Part shown: positions 9,475 through 29,577 of the stretch, in pieces
Numbering within the stretch: the first letter of the stretch is position 1
How the letters are laid out: every line of letters starts with the position of its first letter
From: Longimicrobiales bacterium
GTDB taxonomy: Bacteria > Gemmatimonadota > Gemmatimonadetes > Longimicrobiales > Gaopeijiaceae
Direction: 5' to 3'
Length of the DNA stretch: 64,000 bases
Assembly (NCBI GenBank): GCA_963664435.2
Contig: CAXXKM010000002.1
Span: 192,001-256,000, forward strand
Made by a program: the position numbers and the translations under genes
Notes under the pieces: model-generated
Databases searched by the model: none
Seen by the model: only the letters and a program-made list of their open reading frames with translations
Told to the model about the DNA's origin: nothing

Positions 9475-10368
9475 ATGACTTCCGCACTGCTTGCCATATT
9501 CACCATCATCGCCGGTGGAGTCATCCGCCTGTTTTCCACCACCACCGGCCGCAATCAGGGCATGACCAGGCTCATCTCCTATGGGGTGATGACGGCCGGC
9601 GTCGCCCTCCTGGCGATGAACTCCGTCATCCTGATTGACGTCGGGGAGGTGGCCGTGGAACACTTTCTGGGCCGCGTCAACCAGCGTCCCCACGCGCAGG
9701 GCGTGCACGTCGTGAATCCTTTCGCCAACATCGAGCGGATGTCGGTGCGCGAGCAGAGCTTCCCGCCGGGAGGCACGGTCGAGCGCATCGAGGCTCAGAC
9801 CAGCGAGCAGCTGAACGTGACGCTCGAGGTGTCGATTCTCTACCAGATCGAGGGCAGCAGGACCCCCACGCTGTTCCAGGAACTCGGCACCGAACGACAG
9901 ATCACCAACGCCATCGTCCTCAACTCGGTGCGCAACGGGGTGCGCGATGCGGTCGCCACGCGCTCGATCAACGAGATCTTCTCGCCGGACCGCGCCGAGC
10001 TCGCCGACAACATCGAGGGGGCCATCCAGAGCAATGCGCAGGATCGCATCCAGGTGGTGCAGGCCTTCGTGCGCGACATCCAGGCCCCGGAGGGCGTGCG
10101 CCAGGCCATCGAGGAACGCCAGCAGCGCGAGCAGCAGGTGGCGCAGGAGCGCTTCCAGACCGAGATCATCCAGGAGCGCGCCCGCCAGCAGATCGAGGAG
10201 GCGAGAGGCATCGCGGAGGCGCAGCAGATCATCTCCGAGGGGCTGACTCCGGAGTACCTGACCTTCCACTACATCGAGAAGCTGGGCGAGCTGCCCGCGG
10301 GCTCGGTGGTGTACGTGCCCACGGAGGGCGGGATTCCCCTGATGCGGTCGCTCGGCGGCGGCGGCTAG
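9475..10368 (+). CDS. SPFH/prohibitin family membrane protein
   Basis: Two N-terminal hydrophobic segments, GVHVVNPF, VRDI..P, and a coiled AIEERQ..EARGIAEAQ region. Confidence 0.88.
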   Translation: MTSALLAIFTIIAGGVIRLFSTTTGRNQGMTRLISYGVMTAGVALLAMNSVILIDVGEVAVEHFLGRVNQRPHAQGVHVVNPFANIERMSVREQSFPPGGTVERIEAQTSEQLNVTLEVSILYQIEGSRTPTLFQELGTERQITNAIVLNSVRNGVRDAVATRSINEIFSPDRAELADNIEGAIQSNAQDRIQVVQAFVRDIQAPEGVRQAIEERQQREQQVAQERFQTEIIQERARQQIEEARGIAEAQQIISEGLTPEYLTFHYIEKLGELPAGSVVYVPTEGGIPLMRSLGGGG

Positions 10369-16942: not shown

Positions 16943-17079
16943 CCTGCCACGAGCGCCGCCCCACCAACCGGTCGGGCAGGTGCTTGCGTTCGACGGACAC
17001 CCCCCGATCAGCCCTCGTCGGTCTGGACCGGGACATCAACAACGCCCTTCGCTGAAGAGGGTGGGAGTTCCTTGCGTGT

Positions 17080-17104
17080 TTTCGATGCGGAGCGGGATTG
17101 CGAC
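17080..17104 (+). promoter_or_regulatory. Candidate alternative-sigma promoter TTTCG-N13-TTGCGAC upstream of the Ubl operon
   Basis: Identical bipartite motif and spacing at 19378-19402; followed by a Shine-Dalgarno ACAGGAG and ATG 17140. Confidence 0.65.
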
Positions 17105-17139
17105 TAATGGAATAGGCAATCTCAGACAGGAGCACCCCA

Positions 17140-17397
17140 ATGACCGCTTCAAACATCGAACAGTTCGGACGCCGCATCCCGTTCACGATCGACGGGCAAC
17201 CCTTCACAACGGACGACCTCAGTCAGCGTGCCTCGGCGCTTCTTCGTCTGGCCGGCCTGGACCCTGCCACCTTTGACCTAGGAGAACTACAAGGCAAGGA
17301 GCGTCCGCAGACGAAGCGCTTCCGCGATGACGAGATCGTCTCCATCGTCAAGGATGCCCGGTTCATTACAATCCGCCAGAGCGCACCGGTGGCCTGA
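17140..17397 (+). CDS. Ubiquitin-like (multi-ubiquitin family, single beta-grasp) protein
   Basis: Pattern FTIDG..F....ALLRLAGLDP..FDL....DDEIVSI....RFITI; good SD; first gene before the E2- and E1-like genes. Confidence 0.75.
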   Translation: MTASNIEQFGRRIPFTIDGQPFTTDDLSQRASALLRLAGLDPATFDLGELQGKERPQTKRFRDDEIVSIVKDARFITIRQSAPVA

Positions 17398-17744
17398 TGC
17401 AAACGGGTGTCGAAGCGTTCATGCGGGAGATGGCAGAGCTCGGCTTCGGGCCGACGCTCGAGGACGAGCTCGTCATCTACAAGCTAGCGGCGGTCGGCGG
17501 TGCCCACCCAGGAACATCGCTCGCAACTGGTGTCGGAGTTCACGAACTCCAGCCGTGGCCTCAGGCACCGCCGCACTGGCTTCACTTCTCAGCTGGCTTG
17601 AGGTTCACACGCACCAATAGCAGGCCGTCTCCGAAGTCTGGGTGGCTAATGCATAGCCGTCAGATAACGGGGTGGGGTGATGCCCCACCTGGAGTGGCGT
17701 GGGCAAGCCATGTCAGGGCGGTGCTTAGTGAGACGGTCGCGTGA
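17397..17744 (+). CDS. Prokaryotic E2/UBC-like protein (no cysteine)
   Basis: WPQAPPHWLH (the YP..PP-like E2 motif), GWLMHSRQ..W; TGATG overlap with Ubl; lies between Ubl and E1. Confidence 0.68.
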   Translation: MQTGVEAFMREMAELGFGPTLEDELVIYKLAAVGGAHPGTSLATGVGVHELQPWPQAPPHWLHFSAGLRFTRTNSRPSPKSGWLMHSRQITGWGDAPPGVAWASHVRAVLSETVA

Positions 17745-19246
17745 TGCGCCGAACATCAGTGGCCATGACGGCTGCGACCGAGGAGGCGCTTCTCCGCCAG
17801 ATTGTTCGCGACGACGGGCAAGAAGACCTTTGCCTCGCCACGTATCGGCCCTCCACCGGGCTGACCCGCTTCAGCGCCTTGGTCCGGGCGGTCGTCCGAC
17901 CCATGCCTGGGGATCGACTCGTCCATGGAAACGCCACTGTCACCGCCGATTACATCTTCAGGGCCGCGGAAGCGGCGCAGAAAGACAACTGCGGCGTAGT
18001 GCTACTCCACAGCCACCCCGGCGCCAGCAACTGGCAGCAAATGAGTGGTCCAGATCGCGAGTGCGAGGCCAGTTACGCCAACCTCGTGCGTGAGCTCACA
18101 GGACTTCCACTGGTTGGTATGACGCTGGCTACACGGAACCGCACCTGGTCGGCACGTCACTGGGACACCGGAGTCGGCCGAGCGGTCGATTGCACGCACT
18201 GCACGAACGTACGGGTAATCGGCGACAAGTTAGCGGTGTCTTGGAATGACGCAGTCCAACCACCTCCCCGGCCCAATGGCAGCCAGACCAGGACCGTTAG
18301 CGCTTGGGGCGAGCAGTGCCAAGCCGATCTCGTCCGGCGAAGAGTCCTTGTCGTGGGGACCGGTAGTGTCGGGCTCGATGTCTTCGTACGCCTCGCCGCA
18401 TCTGGGCTGTACCAGTTGACGGTGATGGATCACGACATCGTCGAAGTCCACAACCTGGACCGGCTTATAGGCGCGTCATCCCGCGATGCGCACCTGAGGC
18501 GGCCCAAGATTCACGTAGCCGTGCGGGAAGCCACGGCAGCAGCTACTGCGGACAGGTGCAGTATCCAGGCTTCGGACCGGTCCATCTGTGAACCGGAAGG
18601 GCTGCGGCTGGCACTCGATCATGACCTCATTTTCAGCTGCGTCGACAGGCCATGGCCACGAGCTGTACTCAATTCACTAGCGTACTCCGACCTCATCCCG
18701 GTTATCGATGGTGGCACGGCCATAGATACCTTCGACAGCGGGGAAATGCGCAATGCCACCTGGCGATCTCACGTCGTTAGACCGGGGCGTCCGTGCATGA
18801 GTTGCAATCGCCAGCTCCAACTCGGCGAAGTTGCTCTCGAGCGCCAAGGACTGCTCGATGATCCTGCTTACATCCAAGGCGTTGGAGAGGGACCGGCGTC
18901 AGTCAGCCCGAATGTGGCTCCGCTCTCTGCAAACGTTGCTGCGACCATCCTTGCTCAGTACGTCAGCTTCAGTGTGGCTCCTGCTGGCTTCGGCGATCCG
19001 GGCCCACTCCAGTACCTATTGAGCACTCACTGTCTCGAGCATCGCAGGGATGCGACAAGCCTACACTGCGCCGTTGAAGCTGACGAAGGTGTCGGCGATC
19101 ATCGCGTCTGCCTGACGGGCCTCCATGACGTCGCCGAACGACAACGACGACTCTCAAGGTCGGTAAGAACCCGCGTTCGTTGGCTCCGCTGGGTGGACGA
19201 TCGTACGCAATTCGTTACGAGGTGGTTGGACCGTGTCGTATCATGA
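17741..19246 (+). CDS. JAB metallopeptidase - ThiF/E1 adenylyltransferase fusion
   Basis: N-terminal E (GQED) and HSHP...S..D JAB motif; C-terminal VVGTGSVG, DHDIVEVHNLDRL, CVDRPWPR, IDGG, PCMSC. Confidence 0.88.
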   Translation: MMRRTSVAMTAATEEALLRQIVRDDGQEDLCLATYRPSTGLTRFSALVRAVVRPMPGDRLVHGNATVTADYIFRAAEAAQKDNCGVVLLHSHPGASNWQQMSGPDRECEASYANLVRELTGLPLVGMTLATRNRTWSARHWDTGVGRAVDCTHCTNVRVIGDKLAVSWNDAVQPPPRPNGSQTRTVSAWGEQCQADLVRRRVLVVGTGSVGLDVFVRLAASGLYQLTVMDHDIVEVHNLDRLIGASSRDAHLRRPKIHVAVREATAAATADRCSIQASDRSICEPEGLRLALDHDLIFSCVDRPWPRAVLNSLAYSDLIPVIDGGTAIDTFDSGEMRNATWRSHVVRPGRPCMSCNRQLQLGEVALERQGLLDDPAYIQGVGEGPASVSPNVAPLSANVAATILAQYVSFSVAPAGFGDPGPLQYLLSTHCLEHRRDATSLHCAVEADEGVGDHRVCLTGLHDVAERQRRLSRSVRTRVRWLRWVDDRTQFVTRWLDRVVS

Positions 19247-19377
19247 ATCTCGAGATTCTTGGCCGCGCCGCCTCCCGCGTTGAGATGCCGCATCGAAACT
19301 CGGACGATCCGGCGGTCCGTGCGGGGCAAACCAGCGTTGCCTCGCACGCGTCTGTCTACTTGGCGGGTGTGGTCCGC

Positions 19378-19402
19378 TTTCGCCCTCCACGTCGTTTGCG
19401 AC
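19378..19402 (+). promoter_or_regulatory. Second copy of TTTCG-N13-TTGCGAC, 12 nt before the sigma-factor start (near-leaderless)
   Basis: Direct match to 17080-17104; no SD before ATG 19415. Confidence 0.65.
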
Positions 19403-19414
19403 GGTTGAATTGAC

Positions 19415-22920: not shown

Positions 22921-24300
22921 CTATTCTTGCTCTCCCGAGCGGCGCGCGATTTTGGCCATCAGGGCTTCGACTATCGCGTTCACTGTAGGGTCGTCTTCCA
23001 AGTCCCAGGACGCGAGTTCCGAATACCGAACATGTTGGATTGACAATGGGATGGGCTTCCCTTCAATGTGGGCCAAGAACGCGACTCTTCTGCCGTCCAG
23101 CACCCAGACCAGAGACAGCGCAACCGAAAACCCTCGGATTCCGCGTCCCGTGTAGCCCTTCCAATGGTAGTCTCTACGCAGCTCGATCTGCTGCTGGTCG
23201 CTCAACCGAAATCCCGGCGTCACCAAGCCCAGTTTGGTCTCTTCCCAATGTTCAATCTGGAGCAGGCTCCACGACCGCCTTACCGCGCGTTGCCCTACCG
23301 CCGCGTAGGACTCCCAAGTGCTTCCACTAAACAATCGACCTAACGATTCAAGCGCTCTATCCGCGCGGTCCAACGTCGGATTAACCCATCGCTGGAAAAC
23401 ATTATCCAGCACTTCGACATCCGCCACTCGCGGTTCACCACCCAAGTTCCGCCGGACGAAGAGTTCGACTTCCTTTTCGGCATCCCCGGCTTCGCGGATC
23501 GACTCTCCCTTCGCGACGCGAACCGCCAAGCCGATGGACCAAAAGACATTCTCAAGCATGAACCCTGCAAGCGGCTCCATCCGGCCCACATCGGCGTTCT
23601 GAAGCGCCCCGATATATCGGTCCCGCTCGGCGCTCTTGATCACCATCGGAGGCAAACCGGACCTCAGCAGGACGTAGTTGGTGAGCAGCCGCGCCGTACG
23701 TCCGTTTCCATCATCGAACGGATGAATCCGGAGGAAGCTCCAATGCGACTTGGCCAGGAAGAGGGGTAGGGGATCTGCGGTGCGCGCGAGATCCCGCTGG
23801 AAGTCCCGCGTCCAACGTTCCATCAACGCCGGCGTCTCCTCCGGCTCCGCGAATCGATGTAGTTCTCCGGTCGCAGTTCGCACGTGGTTCGGCTGCGTCT
23901 TGTACTCTCCCGGAACGATCCGCTTCCGGGTCTGCTGCCCGTCCGGAGTCTGCGCGATGTGCCAGAATGGCTCCTTCAGGAGAATCTTGTTCAGATCCCG
24001 GATGTCGCCCTCACCCAGAACGCGCTCGGCACTCGCCAGACTGCGCGTGTGGTCGATCGCTACATCGTGCGCCTTCATCTCCTCGTAGTGCCGCATCGGA
24101 TGCTCGCCAGCCGTTCGGCCATGGATGAGCAGCAGCTCGGTCTCGTGATAGGTGAGGGTGTTTCCCTCAATGTGATTGCTGTTGTAGTTCCACTCGAGGC
24201 GCAGCTTCCTCCACAGCCGCTCGTCATCTTCCTCACGCATGGTTGCCCGGCGTTCCCGCCATTCCGAGATCGCCGCCGCCAATGCCTCCGAGTCCATCAT
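22921..24300 (-). CDS. Fic family protein (N-terminal inhibitory motif, class II-like) with C-terminal extension
   Basis: SNHIEGN and HPFDDGNGRTAR. Confidence 0.92.
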   Translation of the reverse strand: MMDSEALAAAISEWRERRATMREEDDERLWRKLRLEWNYNSNHIEGNTLTYHETELLLIHGRTAGEHPMRHYEEMKAHDVAIDHTRSLASAERVLGEGDIRDLNKILLKEPFWHIAQTPDGQQTRKRIVPGEYKTQPNHVRTATGELHRFAEPEETPALMERWTRDFQRDLARTADPLPLFLAKSHWSFLRIHPFDDGNGRTARLLTNYVLLRSGLPPMVIKSAERDRYIGALQNADVGRMEPLAGFMLENVFWSIGLAVRVAKGESIREAGDAEKEVELFVRRNLGGEPRVADVEVLDNVFQRWVNPTLDRADRALESLGRLFSGSTWESYAAVGQRAVRRSWSLLQIEHWEETKLGLVTPGFRLSDQQQIELRRDYHWKGYTGRGIRGFSVALSLVWVLDGRRVAFLAHIEGKPIPLSIQHVRYSELASWDLEDDPTVNAIVEALMAKIARRSGEQE

Positions 24301-24409
24301 TCTCCCCTGCATGTTCCGCTGGCACCTGCCCGCCAGGCTCGTAGACCGTAGACCGTAAGGTATCGCGATGTCTCAACCTGGCCGCACGGGTTCCACGCCC
24401 TGCACCCCT

Positions 24410-25687
24410 TCACGGCCCCAAAACCCCCACCGGTATGACCCCCACGCCATCCGGCCGCTGGTAGCCATATCCGCTGCCGACGATGACGGCGAGTGCTGCC
24501 GGTTCACCGCTACCGGTCGTGTCCACACGATTCCCGAACTTGAGAAGCGCGGCTGCCGCTTCGTCGATTCGTCCCTGGCCCAGCGTCACTTCGAACGCGG
24601 CCCATCGGCCGGGACCGGCATCCACGATCGCGTCCACTTCGAGGCCCGTGTTGTCACGATAGTGGTATACGCGCCCGCCCATCGCCTGAGCGTACACGCG
24701 CAGGTCTCGAACGACCATGGACTCGAAGAGAAAACCGAACCACGGGATGTCCTTCATGAGGTTCCCGGGTCCGGCATTCAGCGCCGCCGTCGCGAGGGAT
24801 GGATCCGTGAAGTGTCGTTTCGGGGAGCGTCTGAGGCGTGATCGGGACCGAAGATGAGGGGCCCACGGTGGCTGCTGCTCAACCACCATGAGGCGTTCGA
24901 GCGCTGCGAGGTAGGAACGGGCAGTCTCCTTCGTGAGCGAATGGTCGGTGCCGCCTGCATCTCTCGCCATGGTCGCGACCGACGTGCAGGTAGCCGTGTT
25001 TCGCGCCAGCGTCTGGAGGAACCGGCCAACTCTCTCCGGATCCCTCACGATCCCGTCCACCCGCCTGATGTCCACCCGGCGGATTTCGTCCAGGTAGTCG
25101 CGGTTGGCCAGCAATGCGCCTTCCTCGGCCTTCCGGCGAAAATGCCCGGGCCAGCCACCGACGCAAATCAGCGTGGCCAAGTCCCGAAGGGGCAGGTCGT
25201 GAACCAGGCTGGGTACGGGCTCTCCGTCGAGGATTCGCTTCAAGGAGACCTGTCCCGTTGCGCGCCCGAGCTCGAACAGCGACATGGGACGGAGCCGAAG
25301 GCGGCTCATCCGGCCGGCTCCCGTATGCCGCGGGATGTCATCGGGTGGAACGGCTGAGCCGGTGAGGATGAAGTGGCCCAAGCCCGGGCGATCATCGACG
25401 GCGCGTCGCACGTAGTTCCAGATGTCGGGCTCGGCCTGCCACTCATCGATCAATCGCGGAGTCGCTCCTTCCAGGAGCAACCTCGGGTCGACAGCCATGG
25501 TCTGGGGCACGGCCGGATCGGCATCCATGAGCACTTCGCTCGCCGCCGCCTGCCGGGCCGTCGTGGTCTTGCCGCAGACCCTCGGCCCCTCGATCACGAC
25601 AGCTCCCGCTGCCGCGAGCCTTTCGGTCAATTCACGGTCAGCAATGCGGGGACGATAGCCTGACACGGATGTGGGATCGGGTGTCAT
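24410..25687 (-). CDS. AAA_14 / DUF4143 ATP-binding protein
   Basis: GPRVCGKTT, LIDEWQ, FILTGS, LRPMSLFE, PKRHFTDPS, LFES, HYRD..GLEVD. Confidence 0.9.
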   Translation of the reverse strand: MTPDPTSVSGYRPRIADRELTERLAAAGAVVIEGPRVCGKTTTARQAAASEVLMDADPAVPQTMAVDPRLLLEGATPRLIDEWQAEPDIWNYVRRAVDDRPGLGHFILTGSAVPPDDIPRHTGAGRMSRLRLRPMSLFELGRATGQVSLKRILDGEPVPSLVHDLPLRDLATLICVGGWPGHFRRKAEEGALLANRDYLDEIRRVDIRRVDGIVRDPERVGRFLQTLARNTATCTSVATMARDAGGTDHSLTKETARSYLAALERLMVVEQQPPWAPHLRSRSRLRRSPKRHFTDPSLATAALNAGPGNLMKDIPWFGFLFESMVVRDLRVYAQAMGGRVYHYRDNTGLEVDAIVDAGPGRWAAFEVTLGQGRIDEAAAALLKFGNRVDTTGSGEPAALAVIVGSGYGYQRPDGVGVIPVGVLGP

Positions 25688-25714
25688 GTAGGGGAGTATG
25701 GCAGATCGAGCGTG

Positions 25715-25829
25715 GTTTTGCAACGATATCAGCCGTCTGTTTGCAACCTATAAGACGGTCTGTTTGCAACGCACTTGATCGTGCGTTCGCAACTTCATCA
25801 GCCATGGATTTGCAATTTGCCTGTTTGAC
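25715..25829. repeat. Five-unit array with exact 23-bp period and conserved TT(T/C)GCAA core, overlapping the -35 of the DUF4143 gene
   Basis: Cores start at 25718, 25741, 25764, 25787 and 25810; the intervening ~13 nt vary. Confidence 0.8.
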
Positions 25830-28981: not shown

Positions 28982-29287
28982 CTAGGCGACCGCGTGCCGA
29001 GGCGTGACCTGTTCGGCGATCTCGCGACCCGCCTCGATCTCCGTTCGGCGAAGCTCCCAGGTCTTCTGCAGGTTCAGCCAGAGTTGCGGAGTCGTCCCGA
29101 AATATCTCGCCAGCCGCAAGGCCGTGTCGGCGGTCACGCCCCGCTGCCCGTTCAGAATCATTGTCACCCGGTTGACCGGCACGCCGAGCGCCTTCGAAAG
29201 CGCATTGGCCGACAGCCCCAGTTCGTCGAGTTCCTCGCGCAGGACTTCGCCCGGATGTACCGGCCTCATGCCGTTCCTCGCATTCAT
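28982..29287 (-). CDS. higA: HigA family antitoxin
   Basis: MRPVHPGEVLREE, HTH, TALRLARYFGTTPQLWLNLQ. Confidence 0.95.
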   Translation of the reverse strand: MNARNGMRPVHPGEVLREELDELGLSANALSKALGVPVNRVTMILNGQRGVTADTALRLARYFGTTPQLWLNLQKTWELRRTEIEAGREIAEQVTPRHAVA

Positions 29288-29298
29288 GCCACGTTCCC

Positions 29299-29577
29299 TC
29301 AATGATAATCCACGATCTCGACCTCGCTCGGCCCTTCGTCGGTCCAGCGGAAGCAGATACGCCATTGCGCGTTGATCCGAATGCTGTGCTGCCCGGCGCG
29401 GCCGCCTCGGAGTATCTCCAGCCGGTTACTCGGCAGCGCGGCCAAGTCGCCCAGCGTCTCCGCGCTGTCCAGCAGTGTCAGTCGGCGGACCGCCTGATCG
29501 GAGAACCCGTGAAACGCCGGGATACGCCGTCCCTCGAAGAAACGCCTCGTTTTCCGGTCCTTGAAGCTTCGGATCAT
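29299..29577 (-). CDS. higB: HigB (RelE/ParE superfamily) toxin
   Basis: MIRSFKD, PSNRLE, HSIRINAQWRICFRW, EIVDYH; toxin-first gene order. Confidence 0.95.
   Translation of the reverse strand: MIRSFKDRKTRRFFEGRRIPAFHGFSDQAVRRLTLLDSAETLGDLAALPSNRLEILRGGRAGQHSIRINAQWRICFRWTDEGPSEVEIVDYH

Follow-up and report, generated by a model that had tools for sequence, protein, structure and literature searches.

A bipartite motif before two operons of a Longimicrobiales genomic island as the probable cognate promoter of the sigma factor that the island encodes

Introduction

Autoregulated promoters of alternative sigma factors, Bub-like protein conjugation and portable regulators of defence operons are all of known kinds, and the closest described relatives of the locus presented here are to be sought among them. 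The locus is a six-gene island within a stretch of 64,000 nucleotides (hereafter, the window; positions 192,001 to 256,000 of contig CAXXKM010000002.1, assembly GCA_963664435.2) from a Longimicrobiales bacterium. One of its operons encodes a ubiquitin-like protein (Ubl), an E2-fold protein and a JAB peptidase-E1 fusion; the other, in which all genes overlap, encodes a sigma factor, a partner protein with a nuclease-like fold and a short ATPase of the structural maintenance of chromosomes (SMC) type (Table 1). The same bipartite motif stands before both operons, and the original prediction, made from the window alone, was that it is the cognate promoter of the island sigma and joins the two operons into one regulon. 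Comparison with homologous loci supports this assignment.

Group 4 sigma factors, those of extracytoplasmic function (ECF), resemble the island sigma in being built of sigma2 and sigma4 only, in using a strict bipartite promoter with a rigid spacer and in having a copy of it before their own gene; a co-transcribed gene at +1, a pyrimidine-purine step at the start site and, for ECF218 and ECF225, a predicted CGAC-type -10 element are further likenesses (PMC7826278). The rigid 17-bp spacer of Mycobacterium tuberculosis SigH promoters (GGAAYA-17 bp-GTT; 10.1101/534826) matches the geometry of the island motif. Type I Bub systems (6E.1; BubAB-BubCD-BubE) require a fusion of Ubl and E2 as well as BubE, and neither their trigger nor their role is known (PMC11601596). 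CapW, CapH+CapP as well as CapK+CapS are portable, DNA-damage-responsive cassettes that precede varied immune and stress operons, Bub operons among them, and 278 of 544 Bub operons (219 + 59) adjoin DNA-damage-responsive regulators (PMC13373217). Lamassu, composed of LmuA and LmuB with or without LmuC, recognizes the ends of DNA and sets its partner free (PMC12663957). Finally, SigN of the Bacillus subtilis plasmid pBS32 is, as the island sigma would be, a sigma factor of a mobile element with positive feedback, a regulon confined to the element and a link to DNA damage (PMC10601692).

Results

Conservation of the motif in homologous loci

The form TTTCG-N13-TTGCGAC occurs exactly at both predicted positions, on the same strand and with unrelated spacers, and these are the sole exact matches at that spacing in the whole 4.5-Mb genome. 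A spacing of 16 gives two unrelated matches, and spacings of 10-12, 14, 15, 17 and 18 give none. The two sites also rank top in a scan of the host genome with a position weight matrix (28.1 and 23.6 bits, the next site scoring 19.8), a matrix that was trained in part on these very sites. The Ubl gene has an AGGAG at 17128-17132 ahead of its ATG at 17140, and the sigma ATG (19415) lies 12 nt beyond the second motif copy.

Nineteen GTDB genomes, which represent at least 7 phyla, and 16 metagenome contigs supplied the sigma relatives (loci are designated L with a number), and four near-identical loci were removed from the counts. The core conserved across these homologs is TTTC(R)-N17-CGAC(A). 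In relaxed form (NTTN-N17-SGAC) it precedes 31 of the 32 sigma genes and all 30 Ubl genes, and in strict form (TTTC-N17-CGAC) it is found in 52 of 62 leaders with the 17-nt spacer, as opposed to 0-5 at other spacings and 0 of 97 leaders of internal genes. Within the 29 loci that have two copies, 226 of 232 element bases are identical between the copies (97%), compared with only 36% at spacer positions 2-13. Every copy is oriented toward its gene, in divergent and tandem layouts alike (tandem in the window, L008 and L037), with 9-14 nt between CGAC and the start of the sigma gene and 32-55 nt in the case of the Ubl gene. Three held-out loci that were found later (L037, L093 and L096) likewise have two copies each. 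The arrangement of one directional copy before each operon extends to the homologous loci. What did not survive the comparison is the precise form of the motif: the exact 12-mer is present at 5 of 61 sites and a GAAT within 12 nt at 4 of 61, although GAAT does follow the window's own copies at 5 nt (Ubl) and 4 nt (sigma). Both were consequently rejected as defining elements, and the motif was redefined as the conserved core. In L010, the Ubl-side promoter is present in two tandem copies, at 9866 and 9937, 71 nt apart.

Predicted start sites and recognition by the sigma factor

Counted from CGAC, positions +9/+10 hold a pyrimidine-purine step in 47 of the 61 sites, the next-best positions reaching 34 and 29. 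In 67% of ECF promoters, transcription is reported to begin at such a step, counted from the -10 base (10.1101/2020.06.23.168245). By this reckoning, CGAC would occupy -13 to -10 and TTTC -34 to -31, and transcription is predicted to start at 17114 and 19412; the originally expected starts, 17111 and 19409, lie 3 nt further upstream. The sigma mRNA would then be nearly leaderless; the shortest sigma leader among the homologs, 9 nt after CGAC, places the ATG at +1, that is, exactly leaderless.

As for the sigma itself, its Pfam region 4 score of 26.3 exceeds the gathering threshold (24.1), its region 2 score of 18.3 stays below the threshold of 24 (E 0.002), the r4_2 model scores below gathering and region 3 is missing. 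The combination of sigma2 and sigma4 without sigma3, together with a conserved, predicted bipartite promoter before the own gene (31/32, and 20/24 in the sister family described below), is that of ECF factors. Region 4, however, favours PF04545 over PF08281 and finds its best PDB matches among WhiG, SigF and RpoD types, and because it is thus nearer to group 3 and primary sigmas, we leave the island sigma outside the known ECF groups; its original designation as an ECF factor holds for the domain architecture and not for region 4. One candidate for a natural fusion of sigma and partner (P0135, 540 aa) was rejected, its sigma stopping inside region 4 as in a frameshift.

In ECF factors, Asp at the position of RpoE Asn84 selects -13C/-12G, and an acidic rather than basic residue at that of Lys56 accompanies -11A (10.1101/2020.06.23.168245). 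A PDB search with region 2 of the island sigma alone returned no match. In the columns that we take to be equivalent to the two RpoE residues, Asp is present in 34 of 40 sigmas at the Asn84 position, and Lys or Arg never occurs at the Lys56 position (0/40 and 0/28). The two copies of a locus also change in concert. Both copies of L035 read GGAC, both copies of L096 read CAAC in the presence of a sigma with Gln at the -13/-12 column, and the sister family has CGAT instead of CGAC. On the side of region 4, the helix QRxGQ is paired with TTTCR in 44 of 44 sites, and the helices PGxTH or PGxAD in 1 of 17. In the clade with the altered region 4 helix, the SMC proteins of L015, L017, L032 and L034 carry LSDGE instead of LSGGE as the ABC signature, and that of L016 keeps LSGGE.

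A sister family with other cargo

Among 113 genomes of an actinobacterial class, 30 are matched by the partner profile, a tally that includes four unpublished genomes excluded from all else; in another order, 4 of 10 genomes are matched. Homology extends over the whole partner (hhalign 99.4%). In the 27 sister loci examined, an SMC gene is always present and a sigma gene is found in 24, and no credible Ubl, E2 or E1 match was detected within the 1.5-kb flanks. The motif, as TTTC-N16/17-CGAT, stands directly before the sister sigma in 20 of 24 cases, typically 11 nt ahead of a GTG. Of 13 loci that were read further, 10 have a second copy, which in nine of them immediately follows the stop codon of the SMC gene and in the tenth precedes a gene close by; L176 has a CGAA variant, and L171 and L179 have none. 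Strict sites in these extended loci number 17 versus 0.37 in shuffles, and the strict copies before the cargo lie 31-38 nt ahead of the start, similar to those of the Ubl genes.

The cargo of the sister family comprises a TIGR02960 SnoaL-type ECF sigma with a PIG-L-type deacetylase, DrrA-family and MsbA-like exporters and a glyoxalase, and genes for DNA polymerase IV and the LigD polymerase adjoin some of the loci. We take M. tuberculosis SigG to be a member of the TIGR02960 family. SigG is induced by DNA damage and raises the expression of glyoxalase-like genes (PMC3776920). Since the sister family keeps the motif before its sigma and before different cargo, the motif travels with the sigma and not with the Ubl genes, and we conclude from this comparison of loci that sigma, partner and SMC appear to form a stable unit whose promoter is copied before whatever it controls. 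An Xre/MbcA-RES toxin-antitoxin pair immediately precedes the sister-family sigma in L094 (8610-9931), with no motif copy in its leader, and in L108 and L113 the sister partner and SMC have no sigma upstream that is detectable at E 0.01.

Weighing of alternative explanations

Conservation, fixed spacing, orientation, the start-site signature, concerted change and retention with the sigma in the sister family lead us to assign the motif, at a probability of about 0.88, to the island's own sigma as its cognate -35/-10 promoter, in agreement with the original prediction. TTTC would be read by region 4 and CGAC by region 2; the sigma would transcribe its own operon, including the partner and the Rad50-like SMC, in a positive feedback, and would also transcribe the Ubl operon, resulting in a private, autoregulated two-operon regulon. 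Several observations weigh against this assignment. The loci are kin by descent, so that the counts inflate their independence; the relaxed pattern also matches 10 of 97 leaders of internal genes; the sigma-side copy of L016 reads CTTC; and a strict copy is missing at 4 of 24 sister sigmas and in 3 of 13 extended sister loci. The recognition code has its own exceptions: the window sigma has Ser at the -13/-12 column, and 8 of 28 sigmas, all of one clade, have Gly there, both with an unchanged CGAC, and the L035 sigma has Asp, yet its GGAC falls outside the code. The covariation of QR and PG helices with the -35 element amounts to just 2 changes on the tree, and L096, a PG-helix locus found later, has TTTCA at one copy. 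Part of the concerted change could stem from copy-to-copy conversion, the spacers of L096 looking alike.

Could the motif instead bind a repressor or activator, such as the nuclease-fold partner, and serve as an operator overlapping a promoter of a host sigma? The partner has a PD-(D/E)xK fold of a DNA-binding type and is linked to the motif no less closely than the sigma is, the head-to-head copies of most loci amount to a large inverted repeat, and known Bub regulators are repressors (PMC13373217). Nevertheless, a single copy is directional, not palindromic, and is aimed at its gene even in tandem loci, and an operator accounts poorly for the rigid spacer, the step at +9/+10, the fit to the region 2 code and the coupling of Gln with CAAC. 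Moreover, no sigma70 consensus was found upstream of either window operon, and there is no helix-turn-helix (HTH), WYL or STAS regulator among the six island genes. We therefore hold the operator explanation to be improbable. Even less credit can be given to a promoter of some host-encoded alternative sigma, in which case the island sigma would be a passenger or would read other sites: for ECF218 subgroups and ECF225, -10 elements of CGACA and CGACT are indeed predicted, in keeping with that idea, but TTTC does not occur in the searched part of the same ECF supplement (PMC7826278), and the identical motif recurs across at least 7 phyla. Nor did the search for a wider regulon return a comparable further site in the host genome; in ten other module-bearing genomes, 18 of 50 pattern matches are module promoters, and the remaining 32 are mostly inside open reading frames (ORFs) and share no common downstream gene. 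Two orphan sites, in L074 and L075, score 29.9 and 25.5 bits and have neither a module gene nor a long ORF behind them.

That the likeness of the two copies is due to chance, or is a functionless relic of a local duplication, was suggested by the shuffling of the two intergenic regions, in which 86 of 1000 pairs share at least 12 bipartite bases by a score that ignores the position of the motif relative to the start codon; for this reason the window by itself does not prove the motif. The conservation data, with elements retained and spacers free to vary in 29 two-copy loci and in the sister family, refute this explanation as far as sequence comparison can and leave it with next to no weight.

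Genes of the two operons

Table 1. Features of the island in window coordinates, with predicted promoter elements
Feature	Position	Strand	Characteristics
Promoter copy 1 (Ubl operon), predicted	17080..17104	+	-35 TTTC 17080-17083, 17-nt spacer, -10 CGAC 17101-17104; predicted +1 = A17114
Ubiquitin-like protein, 85 aa	17140..17397	+	Single beta-grasp, C-terminal Ala; Pfam Multi_ubiq in homologs (see text)
E2-fold protein, 115 aa	17397..17744	+	Model pLDDT 93.9; no conserved Cys; His86-Ser87-Arg88
JAB peptidase-E1 fusion, 500 aa	17744..19246	+	ThiF and weak Prok-JAB
Promoter copy 2 (sigma operon), predicted	19378..19402	+	-35 TTTC 19378-19381, -10 CGAC 19399-19402; predicted +1 = G19412, 3-nt leader
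Sigma70-family factor, regions 2 + 4 only, 240 aa	19415..20137	+	TIGR02937 44 bits vs cut-off 42.9; 251 homologs
Partner, candidate anti-sigma/adaptor, 299 aa	20134..21033	+	Model pLDDT 75, pTM 0.50; 395 homologs
Short Rad50/SbcC/LmuB-like SMC ATPase, 594 aa	21030..22814	+	Invariant CPTC zinc hook; Walker motifs intact

The cargo of the first operon is predicted, from motifs and structural models, to be a cysteine-free pathway for an Ala-ended Ubl that resembles Type I Bub. Pfam Multi_ubiq matches 12 of 19 Ubl homologs, the window copy itself giving no match, and the last residue is Ala in 18 of 19. The best structural match of the E2-fold model is Citrobacter BubB (Z 7.8, root-mean-square deviation (rmsd) 3.8, 111 residues aligned), followed by other E2 folds; the His86-Ser87-Arg88 motif is kept in 15 of 15 homologs and S-R-Q, with Gln at +2, in 14 of 15. 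Ser87 may correspond to BubB Ser333, to judge by how the aligned ranges are offset at their ends. In the JAB-E1 fusion, the JAB metal residues E27, H89, H91 and D104 as well as Tyr376 are invariant (14/14), and in the best PDB match, Citrobacter BubCD (E 2.5e-22), Tyr376 aligns with the crossover-loop Tyr. The E1 would adenylate the Ala-ended Ubl and hand it over via Tyr376 to Ser87 of the E2, and thence to targets, from which the JAB domain would remove it; a role of JAB in deconjugation is likely, because no pre-protein exists to be cut. In every locus, Ubl and E2 are encoded by ORFs of their own. No conserved fourth gene was found, and DUF6527, the domain of BubE, was not detected among 108 flanking ORFs of at least 130 aa from 20 loci.

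The partner, whose gene at +1 of the sigma is conserved, overlapping and translationally coupled, consists in the model of an N-terminal helical hairpin, a PD-(D/E)xK-like middle fold and C-terminal helices. Residues 71-211 are Hjc-like (Z 8.3, rmsd 3.6, 108 aligned), a match that is near noise and is echoed by many PD-(D/E)xK matches. The catalytic strand has Ser and Arg instead of D/ExK, that is, the catalytic motif is missing. No Pfam, NCBIfam or PADLOC match was obtained, and LmuA is not among the profile or fold matches. The SMC ATPase scores alike with PADLOC LmuB (E 7.8e-15, along its length), MAD3 (3.5e-17) and Rad50 (2e-16), and Rad50 is its best PDB match.

Setting and distribution of the island

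The island block has a GC content of 60% within surroundings of 69% and stands behind a transketolase gene. It has no match in 12 genomes of the same genus, though these keep the transketolase, often with Fic or AAA/DUF4143 genes beyond it, and the island sigma was found in 0 of 300 other genomes of its own phylum. About 108 bp between transketolase and island (16944-17052) match scattered copies in the relatives G141 and G199 at 75-92% and probably represent a short repeat that borders the insertion. Downstream, at 22921-25723, the window carries a Fic protein (PADLOC PDC-S04/SoFic-like) and then an AAA_14-DUF4143 protein (PDC-S01-like); relatives have varying subsets of such genes behind the transketolase, as in a defence hotspot. 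Two small ORFs on the minus strand at 28982-29577 may be a HigB/HigA-like toxin-antitoxin pair.

All 19 GTDB loci carry sigma, partner, SMC and Ubl, and 18 also E2 and JAB-E1. The operons are divergent in 18 of them and tandem in L008; the tandem layout is also that of the window, of two metagenome loci and of a Mycobacterium plasmid. The latter (L037, NZ_CP076857.1) is a mobilizable plasmid of Mycobacterium avium with the full six-gene cassette, mostly annotated as hypothetical, and both promoter copies. No sigma relatives were found among viral contigs or phages, and plasmids gave one match. In 13 of 20 loci, by an uncontrolled raw tally, defence or toxin-antitoxin genes lie no further than about 3.5 kb away. 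In L004 (9753-17029) and L012 (9995-17231), the SMC is succeeded by a co-directional patatin-SMODS-E1/E2 CBASS that has no motif copy. L004 retains both promoter copies with a broken Ubl and with E2 and E1 gone; in L012, the sigma gives matches in two frames close to its end. L015 (5173-7453) and L017 (2709-4989) have in common a pair of genes for 165 and 601 aa (weak DUF4209/DUF7380) behind JAB-E1, in the same direction.

Discussion

The island thus resembles several described systems without coinciding with any of them. It differs from ECF regulons in its -35 element TTTC(R), in a region 4 like that of group 3 and primary sigmas and in a +1 gene that encodes a nuclease-fold protein with no anti-sigma match, followed by an SMC ATPase; no ECF group with such a promoter and +1 gene appears in the passages of the ECF literature consulted. 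With Type I Bub it shares a JAB-E1 with the crossover Tyr, an E2 with a BubB-like predicted fold and an invariant Ser, and a location among defence and mobile genes; it differs in the separate Ubl and E2, a Ubl ending in Ala rather than Gly, the S-R-Q of its E2 in place of S-x-H and the lack of BubE (PMC11601596). Because Ubl-E2 fusion and BubE are both missing, we regard the pathway as Bub-like in its predicted working and not as a member of Type I Bub. Its control by a predicted sigma promoter also sets it apart from Bub operons under CapW, CapH/CapP or CapK/CapS repressors. The island module resembles these cassettes in being portable, but CapW-type systems are repressors on palindromic operators, whereas the switch of the island would be positive, namely a sigma factor with a promoter of its own (PMC13373217). 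SigN, compared by description, is started by relief from LexA and checked by an antisense RNA, and has no SMC, partner or Ubl pathway (PMC10601692).

Lamassu and SbcCD/Rad50 resemble the second operon in that a CxxC SMC ATPase of about 600 aa follows a nuclease-fold protein with C-terminal helices (PMC12663957). Differences are that the SMC scores alike for LmuB, MAD3 and Rad50, that the partner has neither an LmuA match nor a catalytic motif, and that partner and SMC genes overlap directly with no LmuC, which is absent from type I Lamassu as well; the output of the island appears to be transcription, not killing. It is from Lamassu that we borrow the model of DNA-end sensing with release of a partner (PMC12663957). 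The partner would bind the sigma and keep it inactive until the Rad50-like SMC meets DNA ends, of damage or of an invader, and frees the sigma, which would then amplify itself and turn on the cargo. We favour this model on account of end sensing in Lamassu and of the many Bub operons beside DNA-damage regulators, and put it forward tentatively, at somewhat short of even odds. Against it stand the N-terminus of the partner, which matches no anti-sigma family or structure, and the cargo of the sister family, which is not obviously anti-phage.

The competing view, which concerns this regulatory step only, is that partner and SMC are themselves outputs, a repair or Lamassu-like effector pair that the sigma induces, with the trigger lying elsewhere. 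The missing anti-sigma homology and a layout like that of LmuA/LmuB or SbcD/SbcC speak for such a role; the loss of the nuclease motif, the persistence of sigma-partner-SMC as a unit while the cargo is swapped, as for a regulator, and the need of an autoregulated sigma for a brake, no other being encoded, speak against it. We rate it as little less probable than the model of release by the SMC.

In the literature searched, we found no description of this family of sigma factors or its promoter, of the six-gene cassette, or of sigma, partner and SMC as a unit. The private, predictable promoter would offer a direct reporter for the signal that induces Bub-like ubiquitination, and the natural variants CGAC, CAAC, GGAC and CGAT, each paired with its sigmas, constitute a test set for the rules of recognition and possibly a source of orthogonal switches. 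The module further suggests that a sigma factor may take the place of the killing effectors (Lamassu) or nucleases (SbcCD) whose release by DNA-sensing SMC proteins is known. It is possible, if speculative, that the island represents an undescribed class of signalling modules, in which an SMC sensor of DNA ends acts through a dead-nuclease anti-sigma on a dedicated sigma with interchangeable outputs. If so, it would be a LexA-independent switch that detects DNA ends and responds by transcription, and would supply the missing trigger of Bub-type ubiquitination; its outputs would be a Ubl conjugation cassette across phyla and, in the actinobacterial class, a SigG-type sigma cascade or drug exporters.

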